From IMG/VR virus record IMGVR_UViG_3300042553_000685: a stretch of 64,000 bases of DNA. One strand, 5' to 3'. Source of the DNA: a virus. Positions 6,209-44,307 of the stretch are shown piece after piece; positions within the stretch are counted from its first letter, which is position 1; each line of letters begins with the position of its first letter. The notes under the pieces are model-generated. The model had not been told where the DNA came from. It saw only the letters and a program-made list of their open reading frames with translations, and did not search any database. The position numbers were made by a program, and so were the translations under genes.

Positions 6209-6260
6209 GGGCCTGCGGGCCCCTTTTTCCTTCTGGTGAATTTTAATCCTAGGAGGATAC
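6209..6260 (+). promoter_or_regulatory. terminator-promoter-RBS cassette copy 1
   Basis: GGGCCtgcgGGCCC hairpin, CTTTTTCCTTCTGGTGA, ATTTTAAT, CCTAGGAGG, ATG at 6261. Confidence 0.55.
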
Positions 6261-6599
6261 ATGATCTACAAACATTTGCCACGAGAATTTGACTACGCCT
6301 ACCGTGGTCATACTCACACCGACCTCGATTGGGGTCGGTGTGGCGAAGTTCTTTACGCCAGCCGCAGTCTGGCAGTGGCCAAGGACTTCGCTCGTGGAGG
6401 GCATGGGGCTGTGCTCATTCTCGCCTTCGACGGCGACGTCGAAGGCGACCGACCTTGGTGGTACGTAGAGGATGACCCCTCCTACTACGACGAAGTAGTC
6501 CTTCCGACCAGACTATGCGTCTGGTCTAAGTTAGTAATATTCGGCGGTGAGATCATCGCCGAACCAGTGATTAACTGGAACCCAGGTTATACCAAGTAA
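6261..6599 (+). CDS. early-block protein, possible small ADP-ribosyltransferase (112 aa)
   Basis: Own cassette and RBS; ordered YRG (6300-6308), LYASRSL (approx 6351-6371), YDEVVLP (approx 6486-6506) resemble R / S-x-S / E-V-V-L-P motifs of R-S-E ARTs. Confidence 0.6.
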   Translation: MIYKHLPREFDYAYRGHTHTDLDWGRCGEVLYASRSLAVAKDFARGGHGAVLILAFDGDVEGDRPWWYVEDDPSYYDEVVLPTRLCVWSKLVIFGGEIIAEPVINWNPGYTK

Positions 6600-6613
6600 C
6601 CTGGGGTAATTTA

Positions 6614-6669
6614 GGGAGTGTAATGCTCCCTTTTTCCTCGTAGTGAACCTTATCTCTAAGGAGGAGATT
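6614..6669 (+). promoter_or_regulatory. terminator-promoter-RBS cassette copy 2
   Basis: GGGAGtgtaatgCTCCC hairpin, TTTTTCCTCGTAGTGA, CTAAGGAGG, ATG at 6670. Confidence 0.5.
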
Positions 6670-6993
6670 ATGCTTTACGTTTTGAACTCTTTTCCCAATT
6701 CTTTGTACCCCACCACGCCGGGTGGGGTTATAACCAGCACTTGTATTTCAGAGGAAGAGGCCCGCGCTCTCCTCTCCATTACTGACTGGACAAGTGCTAT
6801 AGGGCACCTCTCTACGGCGGAGCTACTCTCCGCCCGTCTCGGAGTAACCGTACCCGATTCACGGGTACAGGTGCCCCCAGGGGCCGAGTATATTGTATGT
6901 TTATTTGTCAGCCCTCGGCGGCTGGCAGAAGGAGAACGATGGACGGAGGAGGATATACTCCAGTTCGACATCAACTACATCCTTGTTAAATAG
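6670..6993 (+). CDS. acrIII-1: DUF1874 / AcrIII-1-family viral ring nuclease homologue (107 aa)
   Basis: MLYVLNSFPNSL, TSAIGHLSTAELLSARLG, SRVQV..EYIVCLF..RRLAEGERWTEEDI and INYILV align along the whole length with my recollection of SIRV1 gp29/STIV B116 (YLANAFSINML, SIGHDSTIQLINSL, NRVEI, RLEEGK). Start set at the ATG at 6670 with AAGGAGG. Confidence 0.8.
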   Translation: MLYVLNSFPNSLYPTTPGGVITSTCISEEEARALLSITDWTSAIGHLSTAELLSARLGVTVPDSRVQVPPGAEYIVCLFVSPRRLAEGERWTEEDILQFDINYILVK

Positions 6994-7002
6994 TTGATAG
7001 AA

Positions 7003-7055
7003 GGGGCACAGTGCCCCCTTTTCTTCTAGTGATCTTTATACCCAAGGAGGGTATT
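7003..7055 (+). promoter_or_regulatory. terminator-promoter-RBS cassette copy 3
   Basis: GGGGCACaGTGCCCC hairpin, CTTTTCTTCTAGTGA, TCTTTATAC, CCAAGGAGG, ATG at 7056. Confidence 0.55.
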
Positions 7056-7190
7056 ATGAATACTAAACTATCAATTGTTATTGCTGTCAGTGCCGTTTTA
7101 CTAACATGCTCTGCCATCATTGGTGGAGTATACGTAGGCATTTGTCACAGTAACTACCCCGTGACGGCGTGCGAGGTAGACAAAGAGTAG
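7056..7190 (+). CDS. 44-aa single-pass membrane peptide (paralogue A)
   Basis: Below ORF-track cutoff; translated by hand MNTKLSIVIAVSAVLLTCSAIIGGVYVGICHSNYPVTACEVDKE; strong RBS; own terminator. Confidence 0.6.
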   Translation: MNTKLSIVIAVSAVLLTCSAIIGGVYVGICHSNYPVTACEVDKE

Positions 7191-7197
7191 TAGTTAA

Positions 7198-7253
7198 GGG
7201 GCCTGGGTGAGGCCCCTTTTTCCTTCTAGTGATCTATAACCCTAGGAGGGATT
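7198..7253 (+). promoter_or_regulatory. terminator-promoter-RBS cassette copy 4
   Basis: GGGGCCtgggtgaGGCCCC hairpin, TTTTTCCTTCTAGTGA, TCTATAAC, CCTAGGAGG, ATG at 7254. Confidence 0.55.
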
Positions 7254-7388
7254 ATGAAATACACATTATCTTACATAGCAGCTATTGCGGTAATTCTTGG
7301 CACATGCGGTGCCATCATTGGTGGAGTATACCATGAGGCCTGTTATGGGCCTCTACCTACCTCACTATGTAAGGTAGACAAAGAGTAG
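7254..7388 (+). CDS. 44-aa single-pass membrane peptide (paralogue B)
   Basis: Hand translation MKYTLSYIAAIAVILGTCGAIIGGVYHEACYGPLPTSLCKVDKE; shares TC.AIIGGVY and C.VDKE with paralogue A. Confidence 0.6.
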   Translation: MKYTLSYIAAIAVILGTCGAIIGGVYHEACYGPLPTSLCKVDKE

Positions 7389-7395
7389 TAGTTAA

Positions 7396-7451
7396 GGGGC
7401 CTGGGCAGGCCCCTTTTTCCTTCTAGTAGTTTATAATCCTAGGAGTACATC
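7396..7451 (+). promoter_or_regulatory. terminator-promoter-RBS cassette copy 5
   Basis: GGGGCCtgggcaGGCCCC hairpin, TTTTTCCTTCTAGTAG, TTTATAAT, CCTAGGAG, ATG at 7452. Confidence 0.55.
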
Positions 7452-7967
7452 ATGAATGGTCTACAAATGGAGAAAGTAGTGTTGCGTGTGATTGAAGAAT
7501 TAGGTTTTAAATGTCCCAAGCCCCGTGAGGTATGGGGGGAGGGTTACTTGTATAACGCCGCCCATGAGCTCGCGAATAAGCATCTAGAGCTCAACTCCCG
7601 AGGCGGTGTCCTTCGTCGTCTCGTCCCCACTGATGATTGGGGAGTCCTAGACCGGGTATACAAGGTGGACGTAATAGTCCGCCAGTATACTGGGGAATTA
7701 TGGGCTCTTCAGCTTACTACCGATGCCGAGGCGGTATATAAGAAGCTGGGCCAGCTTTATAGTACCGATAGTCTTCGTCTGGCTGTTGGCATCGCCAAGA
7801 CCTGCTTGGTGGAGATTAAACCCCCTCAGCCTACCTGGGAGGGGCTCGGCCTGACTAGCCGGGTGGACCGGGATCAAGTAGAGGAGTGCCTCTATGAAAT
7901 GTTCGAGACAGTAGAAAAGAGTGACAAGCTCTTTCACTACCAGCTAGACCTAAGCTGGTTAAAGTAA
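7452..7967 (+). CDS. hypothetical early-block protein (171 aa)
   Basis: ORF track; preceded by cassette copy 5; no motif recognised. Confidence 0.6.
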   Translation: MNGLQMEKVVLRVIEELGFKCPKPREVWGEGYLYNAAHELANKHLELNSRGGVLRRLVPTDDWGVLDRVYKVDVIVRQYTGELWALQLTTDAEAVYKKLGQLYSTDSLRLAVGIAKTCLVEIKPPQPTWEGLGLTSRVDRDQVEECLYEMFETVEKSDKLFHYQLDLSWLK

Positions 7968-8017
7968 TTTAAGAGTATAGGCAAATCCTCAGAGTAAATG
8001 GGATGCCTACGCTACCT

Positions 8018-8082
8018 GAGTGGAGTCACGGCTGTGGTTCCACTCGCTTGATTACATAGACGCTAAGTGCATCTATGTAATC
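8018..8082 (+). ncRNA. two strong hairpins in a 127-nt untranslated gap (sRNA or terminator candidate)
   Basis: GAGTGGA(8018-8024)/TCCACTC(8039-8045) and GATTACATAGA(8050-8060)/TCTATGTAATC(8072-8082), both perfect stems. Confidence 0.25.
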
Positions 8083-8094
8083 AATTAATACTCA

Positions 8095-8149
8095 GGAGGG
8101 CCCACTCCCCTTTTCTTTCTAGTGAATATTTACTCTAGGAGGTAAATCC
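8095..8149 (+). promoter_or_regulatory. terminator-promoter-RBS cassette copy 6
   Basis: GGAGggcccaCTCC, CCTTTTCTTTCTAGTGA, ATATTTACT, CTAGGAGG, ATG at 8150. Confidence 0.5.
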
Positions 8150-8299
8150 ATGTCCCCTTATCACACTTATCTTCAATTAAATCATCAAACGATTCAACTC
8201 CGGTCCGTAGATGGGCCAGCATGTCATCTAGACCTGGATGGTCACCGCTGGTATGTTCTACCAGATGGTGACTTCGAGATCATCACTCTAATAGACTAA
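8150..8299 (+). CDS. 49-aa hypothetical protein
   Basis: Hand translation MSPYHTYLQLNHQTIQLRSVDGPACHLDLDGHRWYVLPDGDFEIITLID; strong RBS; a truncated copy lies at 9133-9252. Confidence 0.55.
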   Translation: MSPYHTYLQLNHQTIQLRSVDGPACHLDLDGHRWYVLPDGDFEIITLID

Positions 8300-8306
8300 C
8301 ACTATA

Positions 8307-8361
8307 GGGGGCTATATGCTCCCCTTTTTCCTTCTGGTGAATTTTAGTCCCAGGAGGACAC
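8307..8361 (+). promoter_or_regulatory. terminator-promoter-RBS cassette copy 7
   Basis: GGGGGCtatatGCTCCCC, TTTTTCCTTCTGGTGA, ATTTTAGT, CCCAGGAGG, ATG at 8362. Confidence 0.55.
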
Positions 8362-9120
8362 ATGTACAAAATCCTAGCAACGTCAATCTACGCCGCACTA
8401 CAGGCAGCAGGCATCTACGTCCACCCAACGACGTGGGCGTTCATCTCGTACTATTTCATGGGCGGTTCCCAACCCCCAACCCTCTCTGAGGCCGACATCG
8501 CTGAGACACGCGACGCGGTAATACGAAACCTCAAGGCTCGTCTTAAGGACGAAGAAATGAGCCGCCGCTCTCTAGTTACTTTCGTGGACATAAATATAGA
8601 AAACGGTTGGTGGTCTTCTTTAAAGGGGGCCATCGGTAACTTCAACTACCGCATTTTGGCGGTAGGTCCCGACACGATTAAGGTGGAGTGTCGTGACACG
8701 TGGGACTTCAATCCCAACTCCCATTACATAGAGCTACCCTGTTCGCCTCGTTTAGCGAGTGCAATATCTTCTCTGGCTAAGAAGGTAGGTATAGAGGTCT
8801 TCTACAATAAAAATAAAAGAGAGCTAATTTTCTGTGAAAAGGATCTGGTCAAGCTCAATCCTGGTCGCGCCTTCACGACCGTGTGGAAAGTAGAGGTCCC
8901 CACAGCGGAGGTAATTCCTGAGTGGGCTACTTACTGGGAGGTGGCTACCTGGAATGAAGGTAACTATGCCTTCATTCGGCCTCTCAAGTACGTACCCTTA
9001 CCCCTCTGCCGCTACCAGCGGGGTAATGGAGTTTATGTTGGACGGGACTACCATCCCGACATCGATTACGTGTCGATGTTAGAAGCAGGTTGGGCTCCCG
9101 CTGTAGATTTACCTGAATAA
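8362..9120 (+). CDS. hypothetical early-block protein (252 aa)
   Basis: ORF track; cassette copy 7 upstream; flanked by the 49-aa gene and its truncated duplicate. Confidence 0.6.
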   Translation: MYKILATSIYAALQAAGIYVHPTTWAFISYYFMGGSQPPTLSEADIAETRDAVIRNLKARLKDEEMSRRSLVTFVDINIENGWWSSLKGAIGNFNYRILAVGPDTIKVECRDTWDFNPNSHYIELPCSPRLASAISSLAKKVGIEVFYNKNKRELIFCEKDLVKLNPGRAFTTVWKVEVPTAEVIPEWATYWEVATWNEGNYAFIRPLKYVPLPLCRYQRGNGVYVGRDYHPDIDYVSMLEAGWAPAVDLPE

Positions 9121-9132
9121 TTAAACATTTAT

Positions 9133-9252
9133 TCTAGGAGGTAAATTCAGCATCGGTCTGTAAATGGGCCGGCATGTCATCTAGACCTCAATGGTCATCG
9201 CTGGTATGTTGCACCAGATGGTGATTTGGAGATTATTACTCTAATAGGGTAA
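9133..9252 (+). pseudogene. 5'-truncated duplicate of the 8150..8299 gene
   Basis: Keeps CTAGGAGGTAAAT, then lacks ~55 nt including the ATG. 9152-9252 is ~85% identical to 8201-8299 and encodes ..VNGPACHLDLNGHRWYVAPDGDLEIITLIG. Confidence 0.6.
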
Positions 9253-9366
9253 TGCTATGGGCCCGTCTCTACTTCTTATTCAAGATAGAGGCGGGCCCCT
9301 CGTCTCTAAATGATAGCGCCTTAAAAAGAAGAGGAATGAAGTTCAGCACCTGAGTTCGTTAAGTAC

Positions 9367-9419
9367 GCCAGCAATTGGCCCCTTTTCTTTTAGTAGTCCT
9401 ATACACCCAAGTATACACA
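9367..9419 (+). promoter_or_regulatory. cassette copy 8 (degenerate, no SD)
   Basis: GCCAgcaaTTGGC, CCCTTTTCTTTTAGTAG, then 25 nt to ATG at 9420. Confidence 0.4.
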
Positions 9420-10157
9420 ATGAGAAACAACAACAACAACGACAACCAGGCCTCTAATCAAGCCTCTAACCAAGCCTCTAACTCCAAAAGCTACGTATTT
9501 ACCCTTAACGTAAGTCGCACTGCCAGCACTAAGTCTGGCGTTCTTGCTTACGTGCACAATGGTGCTATCAAGCGCCGCCTGGATGGGTCTAGCTACTGGC
9601 TGGAGTTCCGGCTGATATCCATTAAGAACGGGGAGGTACCTCTCACTACCTCCGATGGTCGTAGTTTATGTACGTCCGAGTTTGTAAAGCTTCTCTCTGG
9701 AGACGCTAGCGATGACGTGATAATGTCTGTAGAGTTATCTACAGATTTCGAAGACGGGTGGGATAGCTCGTGGGGATGTGTAAAAGTTAGCTTCAACGCA
9801 GAAGACCTCCGCGTTGGGCGCGAAACAGAGTACAAGGGCACAATAACCCAGTACCTTCACCTTGAAGGTGCGGAAATCCAACTTCATCGGGAAGTTGTCC
9901 GTCCGAAAATAGACCCGTCTATACTAGATGGGTTTGAAAGTATCGCAAAGCCTAACGTAGTAACTGCGGAACAGTTACATAGTAAAGCGGCCGCCCGCAA
10001 ACGCAAACGGGAGGCTGCTAAGGCTGCACGAGATGCTGCAGCAATAGTATCTAAGCCAGGTACTGTTGTTGAGTCAGTAGTAGCGTCTAATGATACTGAT
10101 ACTGATTGGGAAGTGCCGGCTGCCCTATCCGTCGACATCGACTATATACTTGACTAA
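9420..10157 (+). CDS. hypothetical protein with N-terminal Asn/Gln-Ala-Ser repeats and basic-then-acidic C-terminus (245 aa)
   Basis: Start set at ATG 9420 just after cassette; MRNNNNNDNQASNQASNQASN; C-terminal ARKRKREAAKAARDAAA then acidic tail. Confidence 0.6.
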   Translation: MRNNNNNDNQASNQASNQASNSKSYVFTLNVSRTASTKSGVLAYVHNGAIKRRLDGSSYWLEFRLISIKNGEVPLTTSDGRSLCTSEFVKLLSGDASDDVIMSVELSTDFEDGWDSSWGCVKVSFNAEDLRVGRETEYKGTITQYLHLEGAEIQLHREVVRPKIDPSILDGFESIAKPNVVTAEQLHSKAAARKRKREAAKAARDAAAIVSKPGTVVESVVASNDTDTDWEVPAALSVDIDYILD

Positions 10158-10162
10158 TAAAA

Positions 10163-10215
10163 GGGGCCCTGCTTGGGCCCCTTTTTCCTTTAGTGGCTAT
10201 ATATTACCACTAACC
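10163..10215 (+). promoter_or_regulatory. cassette copy 9
   Basis: GGGGCCCtgcttGGGCCCC hairpin, TTTTTCCTTTAGTGG, CTATATATT, ATG at 10216. Confidence 0.5.
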
Positions 10216-13200
10216 ATGAATACCATCAACTCTATCGTCTTCCAATCCAATGTTCTCGTAGCCTCTATCGGCGCCGTTATCGCAAACACTCGTGTTACTA
10301 CACGACGTGTAGGCCCTGGTCGCCGTGCTCAGCAGATAGCAAGCCGCCGCGCTAATCGCGTAGTACGCCGTCGCTCTCGTCGTATTGCGTCGGCTGGTCG
10401 TCCTATCCGCTCCTTACCTCAAAGCCAACGCCCCTGCGTTGTAAAATCGGCACGACGTACGCTACGTCGTGCCGCAGCTGCCACAGTCTTAGCCGCTCGC
10501 AAACCCGTGTTACGTAACCGTAACGTCGTAGACAAACTTATCTTACGACAACGTAAGGCCAAACCTATAATGCGCGCTGTCAGCGCAGTATTTGCGCGTC
10601 CCTCGCGTCCTACTAACACCGGCACCGGCACTAAAGCCGTTGCTACCGTAGTTAATAATGCTGCTGGTAGTATTATCGCTGCCCTCGACCAAGGGCGCCT
10701 AAACTATCGTGGCAACGGCCGCACATGTGTGGGCAAGAAGTACAAAACTAAAAACGCTAAAGCCGTTTTAGCGATAGCTAAAGCTGCTAAAGCTACTGAT
10801 AAAGCAGCACGCGTTAAACGCTGTATGAGCGTTGTAGTACCAGAATTACCAAGTGATGTACTGGCTTGCCGCATGAGAGTCGTAGGCAAACTATGCGGTG
10901 TGACCTTTGTACAAGGGGACATAGCGTCTTATTGTGACAATGTCGTTACTATACCTTCATTCGAAGATATATACGCGATAACTCACGAGCTTGTCCACCA
11001 CTGCCAAGCTCTAGGTCTTACTGAAGACCTAGATATAGCTCTGGTGTCTGAGGCCGCTATTGGCGCGGGCTCGGCTCAATGGCATGACACTAAATCGTTC
11101 TACGAAGGTACTGAGCATGAGAATGATGAATACGAAGCAGCTCTGCTTATGTACGACCCGGCGTTAGTGGCCCGCCTCTTATGCACTCACTACCTCATGA
11201 CCGCGTTTGTAGAAAGCGGGGCACCTGGTCCTGATGATACATGGATGGATGTGGTAGATAGTTTAGATCCTGCGATTTGTCGTGAAGTCGTAGGTCTCGA
11301 TGATCGCGTACTCGATTATAAAACCTATGGCGAATATGCTGAAGCCGTTGGATATGATGACACTAATACGTTATTAGACTGGGAATTTGTCTTTAACAAT
11401 AGTGTCAACAACGATAATGCTGTTGCGCTAACCATTCAAGCAATTGATGGTCTTATTGGTGCGGCGCCCGCAGCAGTAACTCCTACCCACCCGCTCTCTA
11501 ACATAGGAGCCCCTACTAAGGGGTTAGAGAGTGATAGCTCCTCTAACAATACCACCAACACTAGCACTACCATGAAGAGCATTATCGAGATGTTAATTCC
11601 TGACCCTAGTACTCTCGGTGGAGCCGTGTCTCCTAAGCAGGAGGCGCGCATTACGGGAGCTCGTAAAGAGTTAACCCGCTTGTTTGGGGCTAATAACTTC
11701 GACCTTCTGCCTGAAGGTCCGATTCTCTATGTCGTATCTGGTTACAACCGTATGTGTAAGAAGTTCCTTGCGCTTCTAGACCATCGGGTTGTTTACACCA
11801 CGGATTCTAAAATGAATCCTAAGGTCATTAACTTAGGTGTAACTAAGTCTATTCCCTATGAAGACGACAAGCATACCTATACTACTAAGACCGAATGCTT
11901 AGTTAGCATGTATAGTGAGCACTTCCTCACTAAATTAGCCACGTGGTCTGGTGATGACCTGGCCGCTCTTGTAGGCTGCCTGTGTATTAAACAACACCGT
12001 ATTGTTAGTGTTGAGGGCCCCTGTGTTGTCATCAAGGGTAATAACCGTAACACTACTTTCAACTTTAGTACAGGTACCGTCAATGACGGCCGTCAGAGTC
12101 GCATCGCTAATGAGCTAGTTAAAGTAGGAGGCAAAGACTACAGTGGTCGTGTAGCCCTTGTAGCGCTCTGTATGAAGGTAGTGTATAACGCTACTGGTGC
12201 GCGTGCTATCCTCAATGAGGTAACTAACCTATGGCGCGAGGACATCAACTACGGCGCTCAGCCTAAAGAGGGTCAATCTCTATTTGAGATTAATCGCTGT
12301 ATGTCCCGTCCTGTTGTTTTCAAGCCTTGGGATAAGGCCTTCCCGTTCCTGCAAGTGGAGAACGTTGGCCTCGCACCCAGCGATCTTGAATTGTCGCTCA
12401 AAGCCGGTGTCATAGCAGCACCTGATAAATACAATTCAAAATGGATCGCTGTAGGTAAGGGTGCCAAGGCCATGTTCCTCGGACTTAAGGATAGTAAGAT
12501 ATACTCCATCCATGACTTCAGCAAGCCCACTAAGGTATACAACCGTCCACCTAGCTCGGGTAAATACACCCGTGCTGAGGTGGTAGGTCGTCATGATAGC
12601 CTACTTCGCGTTGATTTAGGTGATGGTAGCTATAGTTGTGGTGGTGGCCTCTATCTACGCACCGCATTCACCAATAGCCGCTTTGGCTTTGGCAGTGGTG
12701 TTGCTGCTATACGCCGCGACCTTGAGTTCGAATACACCGTACCGAAGACCATTACTAAGGAGTTTCACGTACTCCGTATTCCTAGCGAAGTCCGCGCTCT
12801 TATGGCTGCTGATCTAGATGACCCTATGAGTAAACTCATGGAAGTCATCGAAGGCAAAATAGAGAAGGCAAAGGGGCAGGTCTATGCTCCTGGTAACCCT
12901 ATCATTAGCATTATGCGGGGCAAGTACTGCATAGTGAAGAACGAGACATTCGCGCAGGACATCCGCGTAATAGGCGGGACTGTCACGCGTAATGGCGTCG
13001 AGGGCCGCGCTGATAGCGTCACTATTCGACTTGAGACTGAGATGGTAGGGCGCGACCAAGCCCTCAAACTCCGCGGTCTAGGTAAGAAGCTTACCACTCT
13101 TCCCTATGACGTTGAGGGACTATCTCAACCCTGGGATATCATCCTAAATAACGAGACCACCAAGGGATGGCCCGCGCTCATAGAGATGTTCGCCATTGAG

Positions 13201-15297
13201 AAGAGAGGCTGCACCTATACTCCTGAGGGTGCGCTTCTCACCATCGATGCTACTGGTGAAGTTATTGATCTTATGACTAAGAGTAATACCTTTACTGAGT
13301 GGGCTCGAGCCAACAGTGTTAAAGAGGTCATCTCTTTTAATATGGCCCGCGACCTGTGGGATTCCATCTCCTCCGTAGTAACTAACGATGACATCAAGGT
13401 AATCGACATCGACGATACCAGCGTCCGTATCGAAGAAACAGTAGAGGTTATATACGGCTATCTGCCGTATGATATCGAGATAGCCACTCCTCGTGAGTCC
13501 GTAGCATTCTCCAAAATGACTATGGAACAGGTGGGTATTGTGGCTCTACAGAACCGCTCTTGGGGCGAAGCACTCATGGAGGAGGTTAAGTACGATAACG
13601 TCATGTCCATAGTTAGTATGATCACGTCTAAAAACTGTGCTGCTCACATTAACATCAGCACTACTGAGGGGCGTGACCATCTACGGAACATTATCGGCGT
13701 AGTTAACAACTACGTTTCTGATAGCACCCCCGGCAGTGACCGCAAACTGCTAGAGCGTTTTGCTACCATCTATCCAGATGGAGTGGATATCGTTGCCCAG
13801 AATAACGGTAATGAGGTCTCTCTTCATATCAATGGTAAGGCCCTAAGCGCGTTCGGTACCTTCTCTGGCGCCTCCGCTACTGGTATTATGCTAGACCTCT
13901 TGACACTGTTGGCCTACGTTACTGATGTAGGAATTGAAGACCAAAGCGGTTTGGATAGTAAAATCTACTCCATGACCGCTAAGGTCAGCCGCGGTTTACG
14001 CACATGGTGTAACACCATGGTTAAATCCAAAAGCATTCTGAAAAGTATGGCCCGCGCTGGCGATGTGGTCGTTGGTAAGGTCAAGACCAGCTATAGCCCC
14101 TTGCTCCATAGCTCTGATGGCGTGCCTGTAATTCTCATGCACCCCGATTGCCCTATGGTGCGTATGCTTGGCATCGAAGAAGGTCAGGTTATTGGGATAC
14201 AACGGACTCCTATGGGCTTCGTCCTATGCGGCCGCGTTAAGTTCTCTGCTACTGATGCCTTTATCGCACACTACACAATCAACCCTCTCCTATGGCACGC
14301 CGTTAACGAAGGCGATGCTGATGGTGACCAGTGCGGCGGCATTAATGCTCACAAGTATAGCATCGATGCTGAGAGTGCCCTCACTATCAATGCTAGTCTC
14401 ATGGGCATGGGCGGCTACTTCTACTGCTACGAAGCAGATGACCTGCCGTTCTTCGCCTTCATGAGTTATGAAGATAAGATGGGCAAGAAATCCCTCACTA
14501 AGTGGGATAAGCCTGTAGCTACTGCTATCGCTGTTGATAAGTATGTAAGCGATGCTGCTGAAGTGCACACGCATTATAAAGTAGCCGTAGGTGTCGGCTA
14601 CGGCATCTGCTCCGCACTTGCCTTCCAGACCTGGGATAGTATGTACCGCGCTAGCGGCGTCGATACCGACGCACTTAAAGCATGTGTTATCGCTTGGCGT
14701 TTCGTTTATGAAAGCATGGGTCTCGGGGGCTATACCCCTGAGGCTAAGATCTTCATGGCTACCTTAGTGCAAGCAGCTCGCGCCTGGGCTGCTGGCGTAT
14801 CTATGTATAAGTCGTTGCAAGACGGGTTATACTACTCTGCCAACTCCACTAAGCTTGCGGATACGGATCGCCAGGGAGGTAGTGTACCTCCTGCTCGGGT
14901 TATGGCTAACCTTATGCCTGCTAAACTAGCTAAGGAGCCCGCGGTAATCTACCATCTTATAAAGGCCCGCGCCCGTACTCTCACATACGGCGCTCTCGAA
15001 CGGGGCAACTTCGCTCGCAAGAGCCTTATCATGTCATCTGCCATATACGGAGCCTTCCGTCGTACTGGCCAGGGTCATGATCCTGTGGTTCCTATGACTC
15101 AGGATGACGCGGCCAGTTATGGCGCTGATGATATCGTCCCCGTTAGTGTGTTCGACATGGTAAGTGAGTTCCAACTCTCTAACTATGTCAAGAACCCTCA
15201 ACTCAAGCAGCTGTTGGAAATCGCAACTGCTGTACATCTCGATCTCGGTGACTACAAACTAGAACTCGCTGAAGCTGAAGATCATCCTGATTTCTAA
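10216..15297 (+). CDS. giant protein (1,693 aa): candidate single-polypeptide two-barrel (beta/beta-prime-like) RNA polymerase with Arg-rich N-terminus
   Basis: Uninterrupted 5-kb ORF. LKLRGLGKKLTTLPYDVEGLSQPWDIILNNE (13064-13155) resembles the beta motif K..GRHGNKG..MPYDENGTPVDIVLNP. QRTPMGF...INPLLWHAVNEGDADGDQCGGINAH (14200-14350) resembles beta-prime NRAPTLH...[20 protein letters not shown]. HELVH lies at 10984-10998. The first ~130 aa are extremely R/A-rich. Start moved to the ATG at 10216 after the cassette. Confidence 0.6.
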   Translation: MNTINSIVFQSNVLVASIGAVIANTRVTTRRVGPGRRAQQIASRRANRVVRRRSRRIASAGRPIRSLPQSQRPCVVKSARRTLRRAAAATVLAARKPVLRNRNVVDKLILRQRKAKPIMRAVSAVFARPSRPTNTGTGTKAVATVVNNAAGSIIAALDQGRLNYRGNGRTCVGKKYKTKNAKAVLAIAKAAKATDKAARVKRCMSVVVPELPSDVLACRMRVVGKLCGVTFVQGDIASYCDNVVTIPSFEDIYAITHELVHHCQALGLTEDLDIALVSEAAIGAGSAQWHDTKSFYEGTEHENDEYEAALLMYDPALVARLLCTHYLMTAFVESGAPGPDDTWMDVVDSLDPAICREVVGLDDRVLDYKTYGEYAEAVGYDDTNTLLDWEFVFNNSVNNDNAVALTIQAIDGLIGAAPAAVTPTHPLSNIGAPTKGLESDSSSNNTTNTSTTMKSIIEMLIPDPSTLGGAVSPKQEARITGARKELTRLFGANNFDLLPEGPILYVVSGYNRMCKKFLALLDHRVVYTTDSKMNPKVINLGVTKSIPYEDDKHTYTTKTECLVSMYSEHFLTKLATWSGDDLAALVGCLCIKQHRIVSVEGPCVVIKGNNRNTTFNFSTGTVNDGRQSRIANELVKVGGKDYSGRVALVALCMKVVYNATGARAILNEVTNLWREDINYGAQPKEGQSLFEINRCMSRPVVFKPWDKAFPFLQVENVGLAPSDLELSLKAGVIAAPDKYNSKWIAVGKGAKAMFLGLKDSKIYSIHDFSKPTKVYNRPPSSGKYTRAEVVGRHDSLLRVDLGDGSYSCGGGLYLRTAFTNSRFGFGSGVAAIRRDLEFEYTVPKTITKEFHVLRIPSEVRALMAADLDDPMSKLMEVIEGKIEKAKGQVYAPGNPIISIMRGKYCIVKNETFAQDIRVIGGTVTRNGVEGRADSVTIRLETEMVGRDQALKLRGLGKKLTTLPYDVEGLSQPWDIILNNETTKGWPALIEMFAIEKRGCTYTPEGALLTIDATGEVIDLMTKSNTFTEWARANSVKEVISFNMARDLWDSISSVVTNDDIKVIDIDDTSVRIEETVEVIYGYLPYDIEIATPRESVAFSKMTMEQVGIVALQNRSWGEALMEEVKYDNVMSIVSMITSKNCAAHINISTTEGRDHLRNIIGVVNNYVSDSTPGSDRKLLERFATIYPDGVDIVAQNNGNEVSLHINGKALSAFGTFSGASATGIMLDLLTLLAYVTDVGIEDQSGLDSKIYSMTAKVSRGLRTWCNTMVKSKSILKSMARAGDVVVGKVKTSYSPLLHSSDGVPVILMHPDCPMVRMLGIEEGQVIGIQRTPMGFVLCGRVKFSATDAFIAHYTINPLLWHAVNEGDADGDQCGGINAHKYSIDAESALTINASLMGMGGYFYCYEADDLPFFAFMSYEDKMGKKSLTKWDKPVATAIAVDKYVSDAAEVHTHYKVAVGVGYGICSALAFQTWDSMYRASGVDTDALKACVIAWRFVYESMGLGGYTPEAKIFMATLVQAARAWAAGVSMYKSLQDGLYYSANSTKLADTDRQGGSVPPARVMANLMPAKLAKEPAVIYHLIKARARTLTYGALERGNFARKSLIMSSAIYGAFRRTGQGHDPVVPMTQDDAASYGADDIVPVSVFDMVSEFQLSNYVKNPQLKQLLEIATAVHLDLGDYKLELAEAEDHPDF

Positions 15298-15304
15298 TTA
15301 CAAT

Positions 15305-15370
15305 GGGGTCATATGACCCCTGGGGCCACCTGGCCCCTTTTTCTTTTAGTGGAGCTCTTTACTCCATATG
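15305..15370 (+). promoter_or_regulatory. cassette copy 10, not followed by a protein gene
   Basis: Tandem hairpins GGGGTCatatGACCCC and GGGGCCacctGGCCCC, then TTTTTCTTTTAGTGG; only a 9-codon ORF follows. Confidence 0.5.
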
Positions 15371-15798
15371 ATAGGTAGTATCTGGTATTGCCCATGACAG
15401 CGAATGTTACTAGCGGCGGCTTATGCTCGTGACGGCGAATTCTATTAGCGGTGGCAATAAACTATCTGTTGGGTACTCCCTAAGCACCCAGCAAGAGCTG
15501 CGTTAGTTTCATTAGCCACTCCCTTTCAGAAGAGCTATTGTCGCGATAGCTACCATAGCTATATTAGCCACTCCCCAACGGAGGAGCTTATGGTACTCGA
15601 GCTGCGAAAGTAGCCAGTGCCACTCCCCAACAGAGGGGCTTGTGTCGCACTAGTCGTGATAACTACTATAGCTGCACTAGCTGCTCTAGCCACTCCGTTG
15701 GGGAGGGCCTATGGTACTCGAGCTGCGAAAGTAGTCGATACCACTCCCCAACGGAGGGATATAACCTCTAATTACTCATTATTACCTATTAGCTAGCC
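15371..15798 (+). repeat. non-coding hairpin-repeat region (candidate structured RNA or iteron origin)
   Basis: Five CCACTCC-N5-GGAGG-type modules start at 15516, 15568, 15620, 15690 and 15741. A 25-nt repeat tatggtactcgagctgcgaaagtag occurs at 15589 and 15710, each holding a GCUGC-GAAA-GUAGC hairpin. A 26-nt repeat occurs at 15395 and 15430. No ORF. Confidence 0.7.
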
Positions 15799-16485
15799 AT
15801 GAGAACACAACGCGCCGCCAAAACCACCGCAGGAACCACCGCCAAAACCACTACTACTCTATCCCCTATAGAAGCATTCAAAGCAGCGGTAGCAGAACCT
15901 AAACCACAGGAATCCAAAGCGCAACTGCTTTTCTCAATAGCGTTTACAACTAAGTTCCTTCCAGAACGCATGTGGAGCAAAATGTGTGCCGATGGAACCG
16001 TCCGGCTAATCGGCACAGTCGCGCGGACTAATAACATTACCCATCAGGGCAACCCAGTCAACAACGACCAGTTAGCTGGTCTCACAGTTGAAGTCCGGGT
16101 AACACCGGACCAATTTGAGATTATCACTGATGGCGCTGAAGACATGGTAGGAGGGGGCGTCTCTATCCTGTTTGAAGTAGGGGAGCCCAGCTTATCTGAA
16201 CTCACCGCAGCAAACGGTGAGGAAGTCAATAGCATTGTCTTCTACGCTAAGTCCTTATTAGGCATAGAAGTCAATCAGACTGCTATCGGCAGCCTAGGCT
16301 TTGAGACAAAGGAAAAGATGGATGACTGGTTCTTAGCAGCGCGGTCTCAGAATAATAATCGGCAGAAGCGCCGGCAGGAGGAACGTACTTCCCGACTGCA
16401 AGCTGCTCGTGCAGCAGCAGATGCAGCAAATAATAATAATACGGAGTGGGCGGCCCCTGCCGCAAGCACCAATCCTATGGAATAA
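15799..16485 (+). CDS. hypothetical protein (228 aa), Thr/Ala-rich N-terminus, basic C-terminal segment
   Basis: ORF track; RQKRRQEERTSRLQAARAAADAANNNN near C-terminus; no domain recognised. Confidence 0.55.
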   Translation: MRTQRAAKTTAGTTAKTTTTLSPIEAFKAAVAEPKPQESKAQLLFSIAFTTKFLPERMWSKMCADGTVRLIGTVARTNNITHQGNPVNNDQLAGLTVEVRVTPDQFEIITDGAEDMVGGGVSILFEVGEPSLSELTAANGEEVNSIVFYAKSLLGIEVNQTAIGSLGFETKEKMDDWFLAARSQNNNRQKRRQEERTSRLQAARAAADAANNNNTEWAAPAASTNPME

Positions 16486-16574
16486 GAATCAGCTGACCTT
16501 ATCGGAGGTCGGCTGATATACGCCTCTCTACCAGTAGAGAGGCGTATAAACCGTTCTACTACAGAGAGAAGGAA

Positions 16575-17585
16575 ATGAACGCTACACCACACACAATAAT
16601 ATCTAGACAGGGCGTCGAACAAAATAGAAGACAGTTTAAAGAACAACCCTTCGGGGAAGATTTGGGCAACGACATAACCTTAGAAATGGTTGCTATCCCA
16701 GGGGGAACTTTCCTGATGGGTTCATCGCCAAATGAGAAATATAGTTTTGATGATGAACACCCTCAACATCAAGTAAGTGTCCCACCCTTTTTCATGGGTA
16801 AATACCCCATCACTCAGGCTCAGTGGAAAGAGGTTGCCTCTCGCACAGATTTAAAAGTTGAAAGAGACCTTGATCTCAACCCAGCCTATTTTAAAGACCG
16901 TCCCGATAGTGATCGCCGCCCCGTAGAACAAGTCAACTGGTACGATGCCGTTGAATTTTGTGCGAGATTATCGATACTGACGGGAAGGGAATACCGACTA
17001 CCGAGTGAAGCGGAATGGGAATACGCTTGTCGTGCTGGAACTACTACCCCATTCTACTTTGGGGAAACCATTACAGGGGAATTGGCTAACTATGACGCCA
17101 GCGAAACAACTCCCGTGGGACAATTTACACCCAATGCCTTCGGACTGTACGATATGCACGGCAATGTCTGGGAATGGTGTGCTGATACTTGGCATGATAA
17201 CTATGACGGTGCGCCTAGTGACGGTAGTGTTTGGCTTGATAATAATCAAGAGGAAAATATTGATGGAAAGAGCAGATTCGGCACATATTCTGTCATGCGG
17301 GGCGGTTCTTGGTGCATACATCCGTCTTACTGCCGTTCCGCTTCCCGCAGCAGCCGCGATCGCCGCGACTACTTCAACCTCTACGGTTTTCGGGTAGTCT
17401 GCGTCGACCTTGATCGCGAGGGTGCTGATTCCCCTCGATTTTGGGATAAAGCTGATCGCTTGATGGTGGTGACGGTAGGAGGTGCAGCCCTAGGTGGATC
17501 GATTGCGGGAGTTTACGGTGCGGTTATTGGTGCGATATTAGCGGCGGGCTGCGGATGGTATATTACCTTTAGGAAAGCAAAATGA
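16575..17585 (+). CDS. FGE/SUMF1 (formylglycine-generating-enzyme, C-type-lectin-fold) domain protein with C-terminal Gly-zipper TM segment (336 aa)
   Basis: GGTFLMGS, HQVSVPPFFMGKYPITQAQW, PVEQVNWYDAVEFC, YRLPSEAEWEYACRAGT, FGLYDMHGNVWEWC, RGGSW, CRSA, GFRVV; tail GGAALGGSIAGVYGAVIGAILAAGCGW. Confidence 0.9.
   Translation: MNATPHTIISRQGVEQNRRQFKEQPFGEDLGNDITLEMVAIPGGTFLMGSSPNEKYSFDDEHPQHQVSVPPFFMGKYPITQAQWKEVASRTDLKVERDLDLNPAYFKDRPDSDRRPVEQVNWYDAVEFCARLSILTGREYRLPSEAEWEYACRAGTTTPFYFGETITGELANYDASETTPVGQFTPNAFGLYDMHGNVWEWCADTWHDNYDGAPSDGSVWLDNNQEENIDGKSRFGTYSVMRGGSWCIHPSYCRSASRSSRDRRDYFNLYGFRVVCVDLDREGADSPRFWDKADRLMVVTVGGAALGGSIAGVYGAVIGAILAAGCGWYITFRKAK
17295..17402 (+). other. DGR-variable-region-like 3' segment of FGE gene 1
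   Basis: RGGSW-CIHPSY-CRSA-S-R-SSRD-RR-DYFNLY-GFRVVC: conserved scaffold codons alternate with codons that differ among the three paralogues. Confidence 0.5.
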
Positions 17586-35551: not shown

Positions 35552-35975
35552 ATGGATCAAGCAGATGAAATAAAAAAAGGACACTCAAATCTATCAAATA
35601 CTAATTGATTCAAGCTATGATGAGTTGCCAAGAGAAGTCAAACACTACGTCAACCGATTAGTAACTAAAATATCGAAAAAACCTTTTGTACTTTCAATAC
35701 TAAAAGGATTCCATAGTAGCGCAATCAAATCAAACGACGTAGATGTACTTTTAAGCGGTGCGTTTATTGACTATGATCCATTTAAAAGAGCAGGATGTTT
35801 TTGGTACTTAAAAATCAAGATATTTCTGTTTGTCTTTTCGCTACTAACAGGTGTGACAATACCTAAGCTTCTCAAAGAAAACTTTTGTCTTTTTCTGCGA
35901 TCTGTTGTTATAGTTAGTTACCTTGTAAAGGAGGGTTATGTCAATGAATCTCCCTATTATTGGGACTACGAATAA
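35552..35975 (+). pseudogene. membrane protein paralogue of 36015..36416, disrupted by 1-nt indel in an A7 run
   Basis: The ATG at 35552 opens MDQADEIKK, then stops. Shifting one base in aaaaaaa (35572-35578) joins it to DTQIYQILIDSSYDELPREVKHYVNRLV, which is collinear with the neighbour's N-terminus. Confidence 0.55.
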
Positions 35976-43198: not shown

Positions 43199-43312
43199 TA
43201 ACTTATTGTGCAACATTTAACCTTCTTAAACTTATCCATTACCGAGTAAATATATATTAGGTATGGCATCACCAGTAATGGTGAAGGCCATTGCCTGCAA
43301 AGCACAAAGCAT

Positions 43313-43498
43313 ATGAATAATCAAACACCTATCGAGAGTTTCTCTTTAGCGAATATTAAATTTGACTATAATGCAGAACCAATCTGGGAATTAGCGGCTC
43401 GACTTTCTGCTAAAATTCCCAATGAAGAATGGGCAAAACTACCAAAAGATTTAGCCCAAAACTTTGATCATTATCAACAACAACAGGATCAAAAATGA
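43313..43498 (+). CDS. hypothetical protein (61 aa)
   Basis: ORF track; ATGA overlap with downstream antirepressor gene. Confidence 0.5.
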   Translation: MNNQTPIESFSLANIKFDYNAEPIWELAARLSAKIPNEEWAKLPKDLAQNFDHYQQQQDQK

Positions 43499-44307
43499 GA
43501 TGCACCCAGACTCAATTATCTACCTTTAACTTTAACAACCAAGAAATCCGCGTTATAATCATTGATAATGAGCCTTGGTTTATAGCAGCCGACGTTTGCG
43601 CTGTTCTCGAACACACTAATACGTCAGTAGCTCTACTTCGGTTAAAGGTGTATGAAAAACAATTAGTTGACCCTAAACAATACTTAGGGTCAGTCTCAAA
43701 TCAATATATATCAGCCATTTCAGAATCTGGCTTATATAGATTAGTACTCAGCAGCCGCAAACCACAGGCAGAGTTATTTCAAGACTGGGTAGTACAAGAA
43801 GTACTACCTACCATTCGCAAGACTGGCCGCTATTCTGTTAGTGATTTCAAGATACCTACTACTTATGGTGAGGCCTTACTCGAAGCGGGGCGCCTGGCCT
43901 TAGAATTAGAACAAACTAATGCCACCTTAGAACAAGTTAATGCTACCTTAGAAGAACAAGCCCCACTAATTAAATTAGCAGAGACGTTGACAGTCAAAGA
44001 CGTTGATGCTGTCCTAATAGGAGATTTGGCTAAAGCTTATGGTGTAGGTCGTACAACGTTCTTCGATATGTTGCGTGACATTCGCTTTATTATGATGATG
44101 CCAAGTCGGCTACCCTATCAGCGACATGTATTAGCTGCCAGAGCAGAGGTGTTCCGCAAAGAGCGCCTCCATCAACCTGGTATCTTTGATAGCGTTACTG
44201 TTATAACGGCTAAAGGTCAGTTATACATAGCGAAGAAGTTAAAGCAACTAGAATGTGCTAAGTTAGTAGAATCGCAACTAGAAGCCGCGTACGAGCTTGT
44301 AGAATAA
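43495..44307 (+). CDS. phage antirepressor (Bro-N domain + KilAC-like C-terminal domain)
   Basis: FNFNNQEIRVIIIDNEPWFIAADVCAVLEH, SESGLYRLVLSSRKPQAELFQDWVVQEVLPTIRKTGRY (Bro-N); C-terminal LAKAYGVGRTTFFDMLRD. Confidence 0.8.
   Translation: MRCTQTQLSTFNFNNQEIRVIIIDNEPWFIAADVCAVLEHTNTSVALLRLKVYEKQLVDPKQYLGSVSNQYISAISESGLYRLVLSSRKPQAELFQDWVVQEVLPTIRKTGRYSVSDFKIPTTYGEALLEAGRLALELEQTNATLEQVNATLEEQAPLIKLAETLTVKDVDAVLIGDLAKAYGVGRTTFFDMLRDIRFIMMMPSRLPYQRHVLAARAEVFRKERLHQPGIFDSVTVITAKGQLYIAKKLKQLECAKLVESQLEAAYELVE

Follow-up and report, generated by a model that had tools for sequence, protein, structure and literature searches.

Location and Coding Content

The region at positions 15305-15798 of the viral DNA analyzed here (64 kb in all, referred to below as the window) raises the question of what a stretch packed with repeats and free of genes does between two phage genes. 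By sequence comparison, the window is a relative of the Microcystis phage Ma-LMM01 (genus Fukuivirus), with ~90% identity to Ma-LMM01-type phages, and the region separates the homologues of gp064 and gp063. Among viruses that infect the toxic, bloom-forming Microcystis, Ma-LMM01-type phages serve as the main model, and the transcriptome study of 2018 raised the question of how they run a three-stage expression programme without a known phage transcription factor (PMC5780444). The phage lacks all known T4 transcription factors. In Ma-LMM01, gp054-gp063 constitute the early genes in a single block, of which gp063 is the first and most strongly induced (Morimoto 2018, PMC5780444); at 1 h, gene-level RNA-seq gave a log2 expression of 1.58 for gp064 and 7.94, the block maximum, for gp063 (PMC5780444). 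This setting, the promoter region of a phage early operon, was overlooked in a preliminary description of the region. In the reading preferred here, which is given about an even chance of being correct, 15305-15798 is the transcriptional control region of the early operon and is built from reiterated early-promoter cores.

In the GenBank record of Ma-LMM01 (NC_008562), the equivalent region is annotated as a "42 bp repeat unit" present 6.7 times at 43271-43551; the record states no function for it, and the repeat is not discussed in other Ma-LMM01 or MaMV papers. The array in the window is homologous to this repeat and lies at the identical locus, but it has diverged to units of 51-70 bp, with inserted GNRA hairpins and one inverted core.

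The region had been described as functional, noncoding over ~430 nt and packed with hairpin-forming modules, and these points stand: no conserved ORF precedes the ATG at 15799, and the modules are conserved among relatives. Direct reading also confirmed a 9-codon ORF (ATG..TGA at 15368-15397, MIGSIWYCP*), which was rejected as a coding sequence because it changes non-synonymously between lineages. A pair of micro-ORFs (12 and 25 codons) in the conserved segment described below was discarded as well, since a 2-nt indel shifts the frame in two relatives (L007 and L022), and a coding role for the region as a whole was dismissed for lack of the third-position variation seen in the flanking genes.

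The Terminator at the Upstream End

The region opens with a double hairpin, GGGGTCATATGACCCC and GGGGCCACCTGGCCCC, followed by TTTTTCTTTTAGTGG, all confirmed at 15305-15352 by direct reading and by repeat and motif tools. This cassette had been taken for a promoter-like unit; instead, terminator scans score it as the intrinsic terminator (15305-15347, + strand) of the 1735-aa ORF that is the gp064 homologue. Two G/C hairpins (15305-15320 and 15322-15337) and a T-run make up this element, which begins 8 nt after the stop codon at 15295-15297 and shows 99.5% identity among relatives. With it, as the tenth copy, ends a series of + strand terminator cassettes spread over 6.2-15.3 kb, and the TATAAY/SD/ATG part that follows the other nine copies is missing from the copy at 15305. 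As the terminator of an upstream middle or late gene, it would insulate the early block.

The earlier suggestion, that the cassette drives an abundant and discrete structured RNA, is not borne out by these results, since the element is a terminator. A + strand scan of 15353-15798 found no further terminator between the array and the gene at 15799; a transcript of the array would thus be a 5' leader rather than a separate 0.4-kb RNA.

Architecture and Variation of the Repeat Array

Five modules start at 15516, 15568, 15620, 15690 and 15741, with the spacings first reported for them (52, 52, 70 and 51 nt). The pattern CCACTCC-N5-GGAGG, once ascribed to all of them, is matched by three of the five, the exceptions being module 1 (ending AGAAG) and module 3 (ending AGAGG), and the CCAAC loop is present in three modules rather than four, module 1 having CTTTC. 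With up to one mismatch allowed, the pattern occurs seven times in the 64-kb window, four of these in this region, against an expectation of 0.70 +/- 0.83 (0 of 100 shuffles reach seven). Identity among the five modules is 0.81 in the core, 0.46 in the centre and 0.38 in the flanks.

Module 1 (15513-15541, + strand), recognized in alignments, reads TAGCCA-N17-TATTGT and lies at the 99.94th percentile of the PWM scan. It has a degenerate spacer (CTCC-CTTTC-AGAA); no relative departs from the sequence at positions 15511-15535 (100% identity), and the last bases of the -10-like hexamer vary among them. The overlapping hairpin GCTATTG-TCG-CGATAGC (15534-15550, + strand; pairs 189-196 with 200-207; -7.9 kcal/mol) varies by one-sided A/G and C/T changes that keep pairing via G.U. 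In module 2 (15565-15594, + strand; 99.88th percentile), an 18-nt spacer containing the dyad CTCC-CCAAC-GGAG separates a -35-like TAGCCA from a -10-like TATGGT. Next comes the type-A inter-module hairpin (15591-15622, + strand; GAAA loop, 13 pairs, -16.8 kcal/mol as RNA), in which TGGTA from the -10-like element of module 2 is base-paired with GCCA from module 3. Sequence comparison places module 3 at 15617-15636 (+ strand), where GTGCCA precedes the degenerate dyad CTCC-CCAAC-AGAG and TGTGTC, rather than a -10-like hexamer, comes after it. The main part of a type-B inter-module segment, also defined by sequence comparison, occupies 15637-15686 (+ strand); the full segment of 57 nt reaches 15692, overlaps the TAGCCA of module 4, and is found in window-type strains only.

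Module 4 (15687-15715, + strand; TAGCCA-N17-TATGGT, 99.95th percentile) differs in that its 13-nt dyad core is inverted (CTCC-GTTGG-GGAG), which is the case in only one subclade; five relatives (L016, L019, L020, L022 and L050) have CCAGC at the centre of this module. As a result of the inversion, module 4 is complementary to modules 2 and 5 (CTCCGTTGGGGAG is the exact reverse complement of CTCCCCAACGGAG), so that the complementarity noted in the preliminary description is real but extends over 13 nt, not 9. A second type-A hairpin (15712-15743, + strand; TGGTA..GAAA..TACCA, -14.2 kcal/mol) leads into module 5. The 25-nt repeat TATGGTACTCGAGCTGCGAAAGTAG, exact at 15589 and 15710 as had been observed, lies inside a 52-nt repeat of 88% identity.

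Copy number is unstable. The promoter-like core is reiterated 3 to 8 times among strains with its dyad invariant, and the number differs even between near-identical isolates (LMM01 versus MaMV-DC): Ma-LMM01 has 6.7 perfect copies, its near-identical isolates 1.7, and viable isolates manage with two full modules. Unit number would be readily altered via slippage or unequal recombination. Unit spacing ranges from 34 to 70 bp across strains. Across 17 distinct strains, every unit has an almost unchanged CCA-CTCC..GGAG core, and divergence is seen in the central 5 nt and in the segments between units. Such turnover, together with the sufficiency of two full modules, is what would be seen if the last unit alone were functional and the others were neutral duplications that come and go. 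However, the units of the window type are old (flank identity ~38%) and keep the core throughout, and every strain retains module 1, at least one internal module and the final module, which makes a neutral minisatellite improbable.

Among viral contigs, the module is present at this locus only, and four other matches, in high-GC contigs, are attributable to chance; the public contigs of other homologues end inside repeats or at polymorphic sites, so that these breaks carry no information on transcript ends. A CRISPR-repeat mimic or host-derived repeat was rejected, as the module 20-mer has no match in 185,579 genomes. Host mimicry by a 17-mer was discarded too: its 113 single matches are within the chance range by our own estimate, and the sole match in Microcystis is solitary and of low complexity.

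The Predicted Early-Promoter Core

An early promoter was predicted by BPROM for gp063 with a -35 box TAGCCA and a -10 box in GGATATAACC (Morimoto 2018, PMC5780444), and this prediction (-35 TAGCCA, -10 in GGATATAACCTCTAACC) coincides exactly with the last repeat module. It follows that CCACTCC-N5-GGAGG spans the last part of a -35 box and a promoter spacer in which the dyad CTCC-N5-GGAG lies, and a repeat annotated but unexplained is now tied to a predicted early promoter. Module 5 (15738-15767, + strand), identified from the BPROM prediction for gp063 (Table S3, PMC5780444) and from sequence comparison, is thus the probable functional early promoter. Its -35-like hexamer is ATACCA in the window, TAGCCA in LMM01 and ATGCCA in others; the -10 box after the dyad spacer would be TATAAC (spacer of 16) or TAACCT (spacer of 18). 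The stretch ATAACCTCTAA in this module is invariant in all relatives and gives way to a G-poor, AT-rich leader (15768-15798, + strand) of variable sequence and length, as expected of a -10 box and start site.

The homology and location of the region, its conservation, its variation in copy number and its match to the published promoter prediction are established; from these it can be inferred that the final unit is active as a promoter and that the additional copies have a role. The variable-number tandem array would arise by duplication of the early-promoter core, each unit comprising a -35-like (T)AGCCA and a spacer of 16-18 nt that holds the dyad CTCC-N5-GGAG; approximately half of the units also bear a -10-like TATGGT or TATTGT. 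The last unit, with the best-conserved -10 region (ATAACCTCTAA), would fire immediately after infection with the host sigma-70-type (SigA) polymerase and would drive the SSB-like gene that opens the early block along with those that follow. The upstream units may act as weak auxiliary promoters or as extra docking sites for the polymerase or a regulator.

Agreement with the sigma-70 consensus is uneven. Modules 1, 2 and 4 (TAGCCA-N17/18-TATTGT or TATGGT) rank above the 99.87th percentile in a sigma-70 PWM scan of the window and fit the rule of -35 and -10 hexamers 16-18 bp apart with A2 and T6 in the -10 hexamer. The final module fits this rule only as TAACCT with the 18-nt spacer, TATAAC having no final T; the last unit of the window is a poor sigma-70 match (ATACCA) outside the top PWM matches, and the six upstream units of LMM01 have TATGGC, without the conserved last T. 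Enrichment of promoter-like sites is modest, with 4 sites versus 2.3 expected in the PWM scan and 3 versus 3.0 in the simple scan.

Conservation is not usual in promoter spacers, and the invariant dyad therefore needs an extra function, either as a regulator site or as a hairpin. In the former case, CTCC-N5-GGAG, with half-site centres 9 bp apart, might be the site of a dimeric phage or host regulator; the copy within the promoter spacer would switch early transcription, and extra copies would raise local occupancy. Invariant half-sites around a freely variable 5-nt centre, tolerance of an in-place inversion of the 13-nt core, and spacings of 42, 51 and 52 bp, near whole helical turns, are in keeping with such an operator array. 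So are a second dyad of reversed half-site order, TGGAG-N7-CTCCA at 15350-15366, whose centre is variable as well, and the remark of Morimoto et al. that early products may control the temporal switch (PMC5780444). On the other hand, no candidate DNA-binding regulator was found in the early block, the half-sites are short (four bp), the phasing is lost at spacings of 34, 61 and 70 bp, and modules 1 and 3 are conserved despite degenerate dyads. A regulator-bound array is therefore considered quite unlikely.

An N4-type hairpin promoter served by a virion polymerase was rejected, as gp080, gp120 and gp064 have no Pfam or PDB-sequence match. The three belong to PHROG families without known function, and sequence searches could miss a remote homologue.

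Among known elements, the closest are the promoter-early stem-loops (PeSLs) of T4-type phages (Arbiol et al. 2010, PMC2839356; Comeau et al. 2014, PMC4122927), which are sigma-70 early promoters with a stem-loop, mostly between -35 and -10 (PMC2839356). Each full module similarly pairs a -35-like box with a CTCC-N5-GGAG dyad in the spacer. Likewise, the units are repeated in the genome and recombination-prone, with changing gene or unit content, and the ten terminator cassettes at 6.2-15.3 kb share the PeSL-like order of stop codon, G/C stem-loop, -10 box, SD and ATG. However, PeSL stem-loops have long G/C stems with demonstrated terminator activity, whereas the module dyad is only 4 bp; module stems (-4.8 to -7.7 kcal/mol) have no T-run, and none scores as a terminator, unlike the 15305-15347 cassette. 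PeSLs are also dispersed, each flanking an ORFan, whereas the window units follow one another head-to-tail without intervening ORFs; small genes are flanked, however, by the dispersed cassettes at 6.2-10.2 kb. PeSL promoters are close to the E. coli consensus and those of the window are not, and the two systems are unrelated in host, phage lineage and sequence.

The stacking of several host-polymerase promoters, all oriented alike, before the first early genes also recalls A1, A2 and A3 of phage T7, where it captures the host polymerase directly upon DNA entry. The T7 promoters are distinct sequences ~100 bp apart, each experimentally mapped. In the array, in contrast, promoters are predicted, copy number varies among strains, and the duplicates of a single core lie at distances of 34-70 bp (42 bp in Ma-LMM01), which leaves no room for simultaneous occupancy. 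Most likely, the region belongs to a familiar class of element and is unusual in its repetition.

The Conserved Segment between Terminator and Array

A simple promoter leaves unexplained the ~190 nt between the terminator and the array. Together with the module core, this segment is conserved far beyond the level of synonymous sites in the flanking genes; over the full set of known relatives, these 190 noncoding nucleotides out-conserve the neighbouring genes. Behind the terminator lies the dyad TGGAG-N7-CTCCA (15350-15366, no strand assigned), found in alignments and by RNAalifold (pairs 3-8 with 16-21), whose arms are invariant and of whose centre three nucleotides differ between strains. 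A possible hairpin, GGTAGTA-TCTGG-TATTGCC (15374-15392, + strand; pairs 28-35 with 39-46), contains the sole compensatory pair of the region: G-C in most sequences, A-U in one relative (L020) and A.C in the LMM01 type. The ultra-conserved segment itself (15395-15460, no strand assigned) shows 98.4% mean pairwise identity, compared with 87% and 72% at the third-codon positions of the flanking genes, and holds the 26-nt direct repeat pair reported at 15395 and 15430 (15395-15420 and 15430-15455), which is identical at 21 of 26 positions. In addition, a long interrupted helix is predicted within 15400-15516 (+ strand; 15400-15426 with 15491-15516, columns 54-80 with 147-172). Both substitutions observed in it keep pairing; its stability is marginal (z = -1.9 on the + strand and 0.1 on the - strand).

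The conserved 190 nt show no excess folding stability (z from -1.1 to +0.6), and 1 pair in 58 is compensatory, with too little variation among the sequences for this to be decisive. The segment is under very strong purifying selection and would be regulatory DNA or the start of a leader RNA. The repeat and this segment offer testable targets for how early transcription starts and shuts off.

A Possible Replication Origin

An iteron-type origin with ~5-helical-turn spacing had been the other proposal for the region, and a promoter-primed origin of the T7/T4 type, in which tandem promoters precede an AT-rich stretch, may be considered with it. The array resembles iterons in its direct repeats of ~20 nt that are partly helix-phased, with spacings of ~4 and ~5 turns; 30-40 nt of AT-rich sequence lie downstream, an SSB-like gene adjoins, and the cumulative GC skew of the window has its minimum near 14-16 kb. 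The helical phasing holds for the spacings of 42 and 52 bp and fails for those of 34, 61 and 70 bp, and unit spacing is irregular in many strains. Moreover, cumulative GC skew over the complete Ma-LMM01 genome, a noisy curve, reaches its lowest point at 75 kb and shows no extreme at 43.3 kb; as skew in phages tracks transcription, the test is a weak one. The annotated replication genes are 134-160 kb distant on the map, and no initiator gene was recognised among the neighbours. Unlike iteron origins, the array has an irregular spacing and no skew signal, and can shrink to two full units in viable isolates. An origin of either type is thus very improbable, and the iteron proposal was not upheld.

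A Possible Transcribed Leader

If transcription started upstream, at module 1 or near the terminator, the array would become a multi-hairpin 5' leader that controls mRNA stability or translation of the SSB-like gene, with a chain of CUCC-loop-GGAG and GNRA hairpins and an unstructured, G-poor stretch over the start codon. The lack of a terminator ahead of the 15799 gene and the SSB-like nature of the protein encoded downstream are compatible with such a leader, as are two good candidate promoters upstream of the array, module 1 and TTGTCG-16-TATATT. The + strand of the window folds beyond shuffles and beyond the - strand (z -6.4/-7.0 versus -2.4/-2.8). Two distinct sequences, CGATACCA and CAGTGCCA, both form the type-A hairpin of 12-13 bp. 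Approximately eight one-sided changes preserve pairing and 3-4 break it, and there is one compensatory G-C/A-U pair. Moreover, the hairpins' one-sided substitutions mostly keep G.U pairing on the + strand, as a transcribed leader would, and these pairs would be mismatches on the other strand, which speaks against a region that is promoter only.

However, the excess stability (z ~ -7) is limited to the subclade with the inverted module 4, whereas in non-inverted relatives z lies between -1 and -3 for either strand (Ma-LMM01, + strand: -1.3 to -1.7). Both the strong folding and the "kissing" complementarity thus stem from a 13-nt inversion in only one subclade. The GNRA hairpin is missing from the 42-bp units of the LMM01 type, and the candidate upstream -10 boxes are not conserved in LMM01. 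In the covariation check suggested in the preliminary description, the repeat hairpins show no double-sided, compensatory changes, the ratio of preserved to broken pairs is near chance for transitions, and neither stability excess nor covariation is conserved. The region hardly varies even among strains with as little as 62-67% identity in the gp063 protein, which limits what covariation can show. In searches for known RNA families and tRNAs, nothing in the region passed gathering thresholds, Rfam included, and E<=10 gave two chance-level matches. A regulatory leader is therefore considered unlikely, and initiation from the last module, the predicted early promoter, is preferred.

The First Early Gene

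The gene behind the array (15799-16485, + strand; 228 aa) is the gp063 homologue and first early gene, as assigned from expression (PMC5780444). It has no Shine-Dalgarno sequence, and its product has no sequence-level match. The AlphaFold model (pLDDT 62) retrieves almost exclusively SSBs in Foldseek, and the protein is tentatively regarded as an SSB-like OB-fold protein. If this assignment is true, gp063 would supply an SSB, a protein absent from the annotation of the Ma-LMM01 record.

The SSB of phage T4, gene 32 protein, binds its own structured, AU-rich leader. The arrangement here is similar in that a structured element and an unstructured AU-rich stretch precede the gene of an abundant SSB, but no pseudoknot was found, the SSB assignment comes from a moderate-confidence model only, and the likeness requires transcription to start upstream of the array.

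That the hairpin array and the adjoining SSB-like protein form one functional unit is improbable, and two versions can be envisaged. In the first, the array would be transcribed, and the SSB-like protein would adjust its own amount by way of the hairpins and the unstructured G-poor tail, which together would serve as a titratable operator; this would be a counterpart of gene 32 autoregulation that is built on repeats and tunable by copy number. In the second, dyads extruded as DNA hairpins would define, together with the SSB-type protein, an unconventional form of early promoter.

Location and overall reading of the region

The region studied (15305-15798) is the entire intergenic stretch between a 1735-aa ORF upstream (10090-15297) and a 228-aa ORF downstream (15799-16485), which are homologues of gp064 and gp063 of the phage Ma-LMM01. 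The window is ~90% identical to Fukuivirus Microcystis phages (Ma-LMM01, MaMV-DC, MaMV-DH01 and the DL/CH isolates). The corresponding stretch of Ma-LMM01 already carries the label "42 bp repeat unit" in its GenBank record (six full copies and one partial), without a function, and no paper discussing this repeat was found in the accessible literature. The best-supported reading is that of an early-operon control region, in which a terminator is followed by an upstream segment under strong constraint and then by an array of early-promoter cores that varies in copy number. The element would be a variant of two known kinds, tandem early promoters and PeSL-type promoter/stem-loop units, at a locus previously annotated as a repeat.

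Direct reading and repeat tools confirmed all the listed elements of the preliminary description at their stated coordinates: the double hairpin with TTTTTCTTTTAGTGG, the 9-codon ORF, five modules starting at 15516, 15568, 15620, 15690 and 15741 (spacings of 52, 52, 70 and 51 nt), an exact 25-nt repeat with a GCTGC-GAAA-GTAGC hairpin (15589 and 15710), and a 26-nt repeat pair (15395 and 15430) identical at 21 of 26 positions. All five modules exist, but only three fit CCACTCC-N5-GGAGG exactly, and the CCAAC centre attributed to four is carried by three. Allowing one mismatch, the pattern occurs seven times in the window (four of these within the region) against 0.70 expected; seven was attained in 0/100 shuffles.

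Early transcription and the predicted promoter

The infection transcriptome of Ma-LMM01 places all early genes (gp054-gp063) within a single 5.8-kb block, which gp063 opens in the direction of transcription (PMC5780444). At 1 h after infection, log2 expression is 7.94 for gp063, the block maximum, versus 1.58 for gp064 (Table S3, PMC5780444); therefore, an early promoter must be located in the intergenic region between them. BPROM predicts a gp063 promoter with the -35 hexamer TAGCCA and a -10 box inside GGATATAACCTCTAACC (Table S3, PMC5780444), and in the Ma-LMM01 sequence this prediction coincides exactly with the last repeat module, TAGCCACTCCCCAGCGGAGGGATATAACC. Judged by this coincidence, the module as first described would comprise the promoter spacer and the 3' half of a -35 hexamer, which makes the 42-bp repeat a reiterated predicted promoter core. 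A sigma-70 PWM scan showed modest enrichment, with hits that reach at least the 99.87th percentile of the window at 15513 (TAGCCA-17-TATTGT), 15538 (TTGTCG-16-TATATT), 15565 (TAGCCA-18-TATGGT) and 15687 (TAGCCA-17-TATGGT); the last unit of the window's strain scores poorly.

In the best-supported reading, the last array copy would be the working early promoter, and the upstream copies may fire, dock polymerase or a regulator, or be transcribed as leader. The invariant spacer dyad (CTCC-N5-GGAG) suggests a further layer in the form of a regulator site or a hairpin. In every version of the region, the final unit terminates in an invariant ATAACCTCTAA, followed by a G-poor, AT-rich leader variable in sequence and length, the pattern expected of a -10 box/start site and a short 5' UTR.

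Variation of the module array

Seventeen distinct versions of the region were gathered from isolates, IMG/VR contigs, metagenomes and Logan/ENA assemblies. With the degenerate module 1 included, there are eight modules in Ma-LMM01, five in the window, three in MaMV-DC and the DL, DH and CH isolates, and four to six in other environmental types. The core CCA-CTCC...GGAG is nearly invariant in all units of all 17 versions, the central 5 nt are free to vary (CCAGC, CTAGC, CCAAC, CCTTC, CTAAC, GTTGG), and the segments between units are of several unrelated types. The window's five modules share more of the core (identity 0.81) than of the centre (0.46) or the flanks (0.38), which argues against the extra copies being simply decaying duplicates.

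Module 4 is indeed complementary to modules 2 and 5, as reported, but over a perfect 13-mer rather than 9 nt, because the core CTCCCCAACGGAG is inverted in place. At 15693-15705, the 13-nt dyad core has been flipped exactly, from CTCCCCAACGGAG to CTCCGTTGGGGAG, in one subclade; the GTTGG inversion is restricted to it, and CCAGC stands at the same position in five related versions (L016, L019, L020, L022, L050). Such an exact in-place inversion is typical of template switching at a quasi-palindrome and suggests hairpin formation by the dyad while the DNA is single-stranded during replication.

Constraint on the upstream segment

Mean pairwise identity among nine diverse strains is 99.5% for the terminator, 98.4% for 15395-15460 (the 26-nt repeat pair) and 100% for the module 1 region (15511-15535); it is 87% at third-codon positions of the end of gp064 and 72% at those of gp063. 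The ~190-nt upstream segment is almost identical even where the strains' gp063 proteins are only 62-67% identical. At ~15471-15486, and at homologous positions in the related versions L001, L007 and L022, all four combinations of a 2-nt indel with a neighbouring GCACCC/GGATCC polymorphism are seen among strains, a four-gamete pattern that points to recombination within this ultra-conserved segment. Given such recombination, the conservation is not merely a matter of recent shared ancestry.

RNA structure

The preliminary description proposed a discrete, structured RNA of ~0.4 kb with kissing or long-range pairing. The + strand of the window indeed folds far more stably than shuffles (z of -6.4 over 15353-15798 and -7.0 over the array), the corresponding values for the - strand being -2.4 and -2.8. 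However, excess stability is found only in strains with the inverted module (the window and L010): z is -1.0 to -3.0 (+ strand) and -0.8 to -1.7 (- strand) in non-inverted relatives, -1.3 to -1.7 on the Ma-LMM01 + strand, and -1.1 to +0.6 in the ultra-conserved upstream segment. The kissing or long-range pairing is therefore a lineage-specific by-product of a single inversion. RNAalifold predicts a long interrupted helix (15400-15426 with 15491-15516) in which both substitutions preserve pairing, with a domain z of only -1.9, and the hairpin at 15374-15392 has one compensatory pair. The repeat hairpins show no double-sided changes among the compared versions; about eight one-sided changes keep pairing via G.U and three to four break it, near chance for transitions. 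The GNRA hairpin is missing from LMM01-type units, and no Rfam family matches the region. As no terminator lies between the array and the gene at 15799, a discrete 0.4-kb RNA is unlikely; transcription of the array as a hairpin leader is possible.

The terminator and the cassette series

The double hairpin (15305-15352), previously described as promoter-like, consists of GGGGCCACCTGGCCCC followed by TTTTTCTTTT, starts 8 nt past the stop codon of the 1735-aa ORF and is scored as an intrinsic terminator. Ten G/C hairpin plus T-run (CTTTTYCTTYTAGTGR) units are spread over 6.2-15.3 kb of the + strand (6209-10200 and 15305-15352), each directly after a stop codon, and this is the last of them; no such unit lies on the + strand inside the early block. 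Terminator-like sites number 33 in the scanned 6-22 kb, compared with 11.1 +/- 2.9 in shuffles. In 9/10 units, a TATAAY-like -10 box, an AGGAG ribosome-binding site and an ATG follow within ~25 nt downstream, so that these nine are similar to the PeSLs, composite promoter/terminator cassettes of T4-type phages (PMC2839356, PMC4122927). The units look like PeSL-type cassettes in a cyanophage unrelated to T4. Copy 10 lacks the -10 box/RBS/ATG part and evidently serves to stop transcription of gp064 and to insulate the sequence behind it.

The 1735-aa ORF, as called mechanically, begins upstream of a cassette copy at ~10165-10196 (window 10090-10230). Because its family match starts only at residue 46, translation probably begins at the ATG at ~10228, immediately 3' of that copy.

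Origin, mimicry and virion-polymerase questions

An iteron-type origin had also been proposed. Spacings of 42, 51 and 52 bp approximate whole helical turns, but those of 34, 61 and 70 bp are off helical phase. In the complete Ma-LMM01 genome, cumulative GC skew fluctuates noisily, reaching its minimum at 75 kb and showing no signal at the repeat, and the annotated replication genes map far from the repeat; a replication origin at the locus is possible, but nothing supports it. Mimicry of a host repeat or CRISPR was rejected, because the module 20-mer is absent from 185,579 bacterial and archaeal genomes and the 17-mer hits there are at about the chance number (our own estimate), the sole Microcystis hit being a solitary low-complexity match. 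N4-like hairpin promoters read by a virion polymerase found no support; neither Pfam nor the PDB gave hits for the giant proteins gp080, gp120 and gp064, which belong to PHROG families without known function.

The first early genes

The gp063 homologue (15799-16485, annotated as hypothetical) has no sequence-level family. Its moderate-confidence AlphaFold model (pLDDT 62, core 75-83) matches almost exclusively SSB OB-folds in the PDB (best E 1.4e-3, probability 0.9-0.99), and named viral-model matches outside its own family are nearly all phage SSBs (E 1e-4 to 1e-2). Tentatively, the predicted fold marks it as an SSB-like OB-fold protein; no SSB is annotated in the Ma-LMM01 record. A further match to the model is A0A7G9A3X7 (14% identity), a second protein from the same uncultured phage.

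The gp062 homologue (16575-17585), called "kinase" in Ma-LMM01 and MaMV-DC, matches the FGE-sulfatase/sulfatase-modifying-factor domain PF03781 (E = 9e-56); the PHROG family that it matches is the one labelled kinase. Just past the opposite end of the early block, Ma-LMM01 carries a second annotated repeat, a "56 bp repeat unit" in two copies (35836-35961) overlapping gp049 and gp050. Between the first and second early genes of the window (16486-16574) lie two strong hairpins without a T-run, CAGCTGACC..GGTCGGCTG and ATACGCCTCTCTAC..GTAGAGAGGCGTAT, which could be processing or stability elements.
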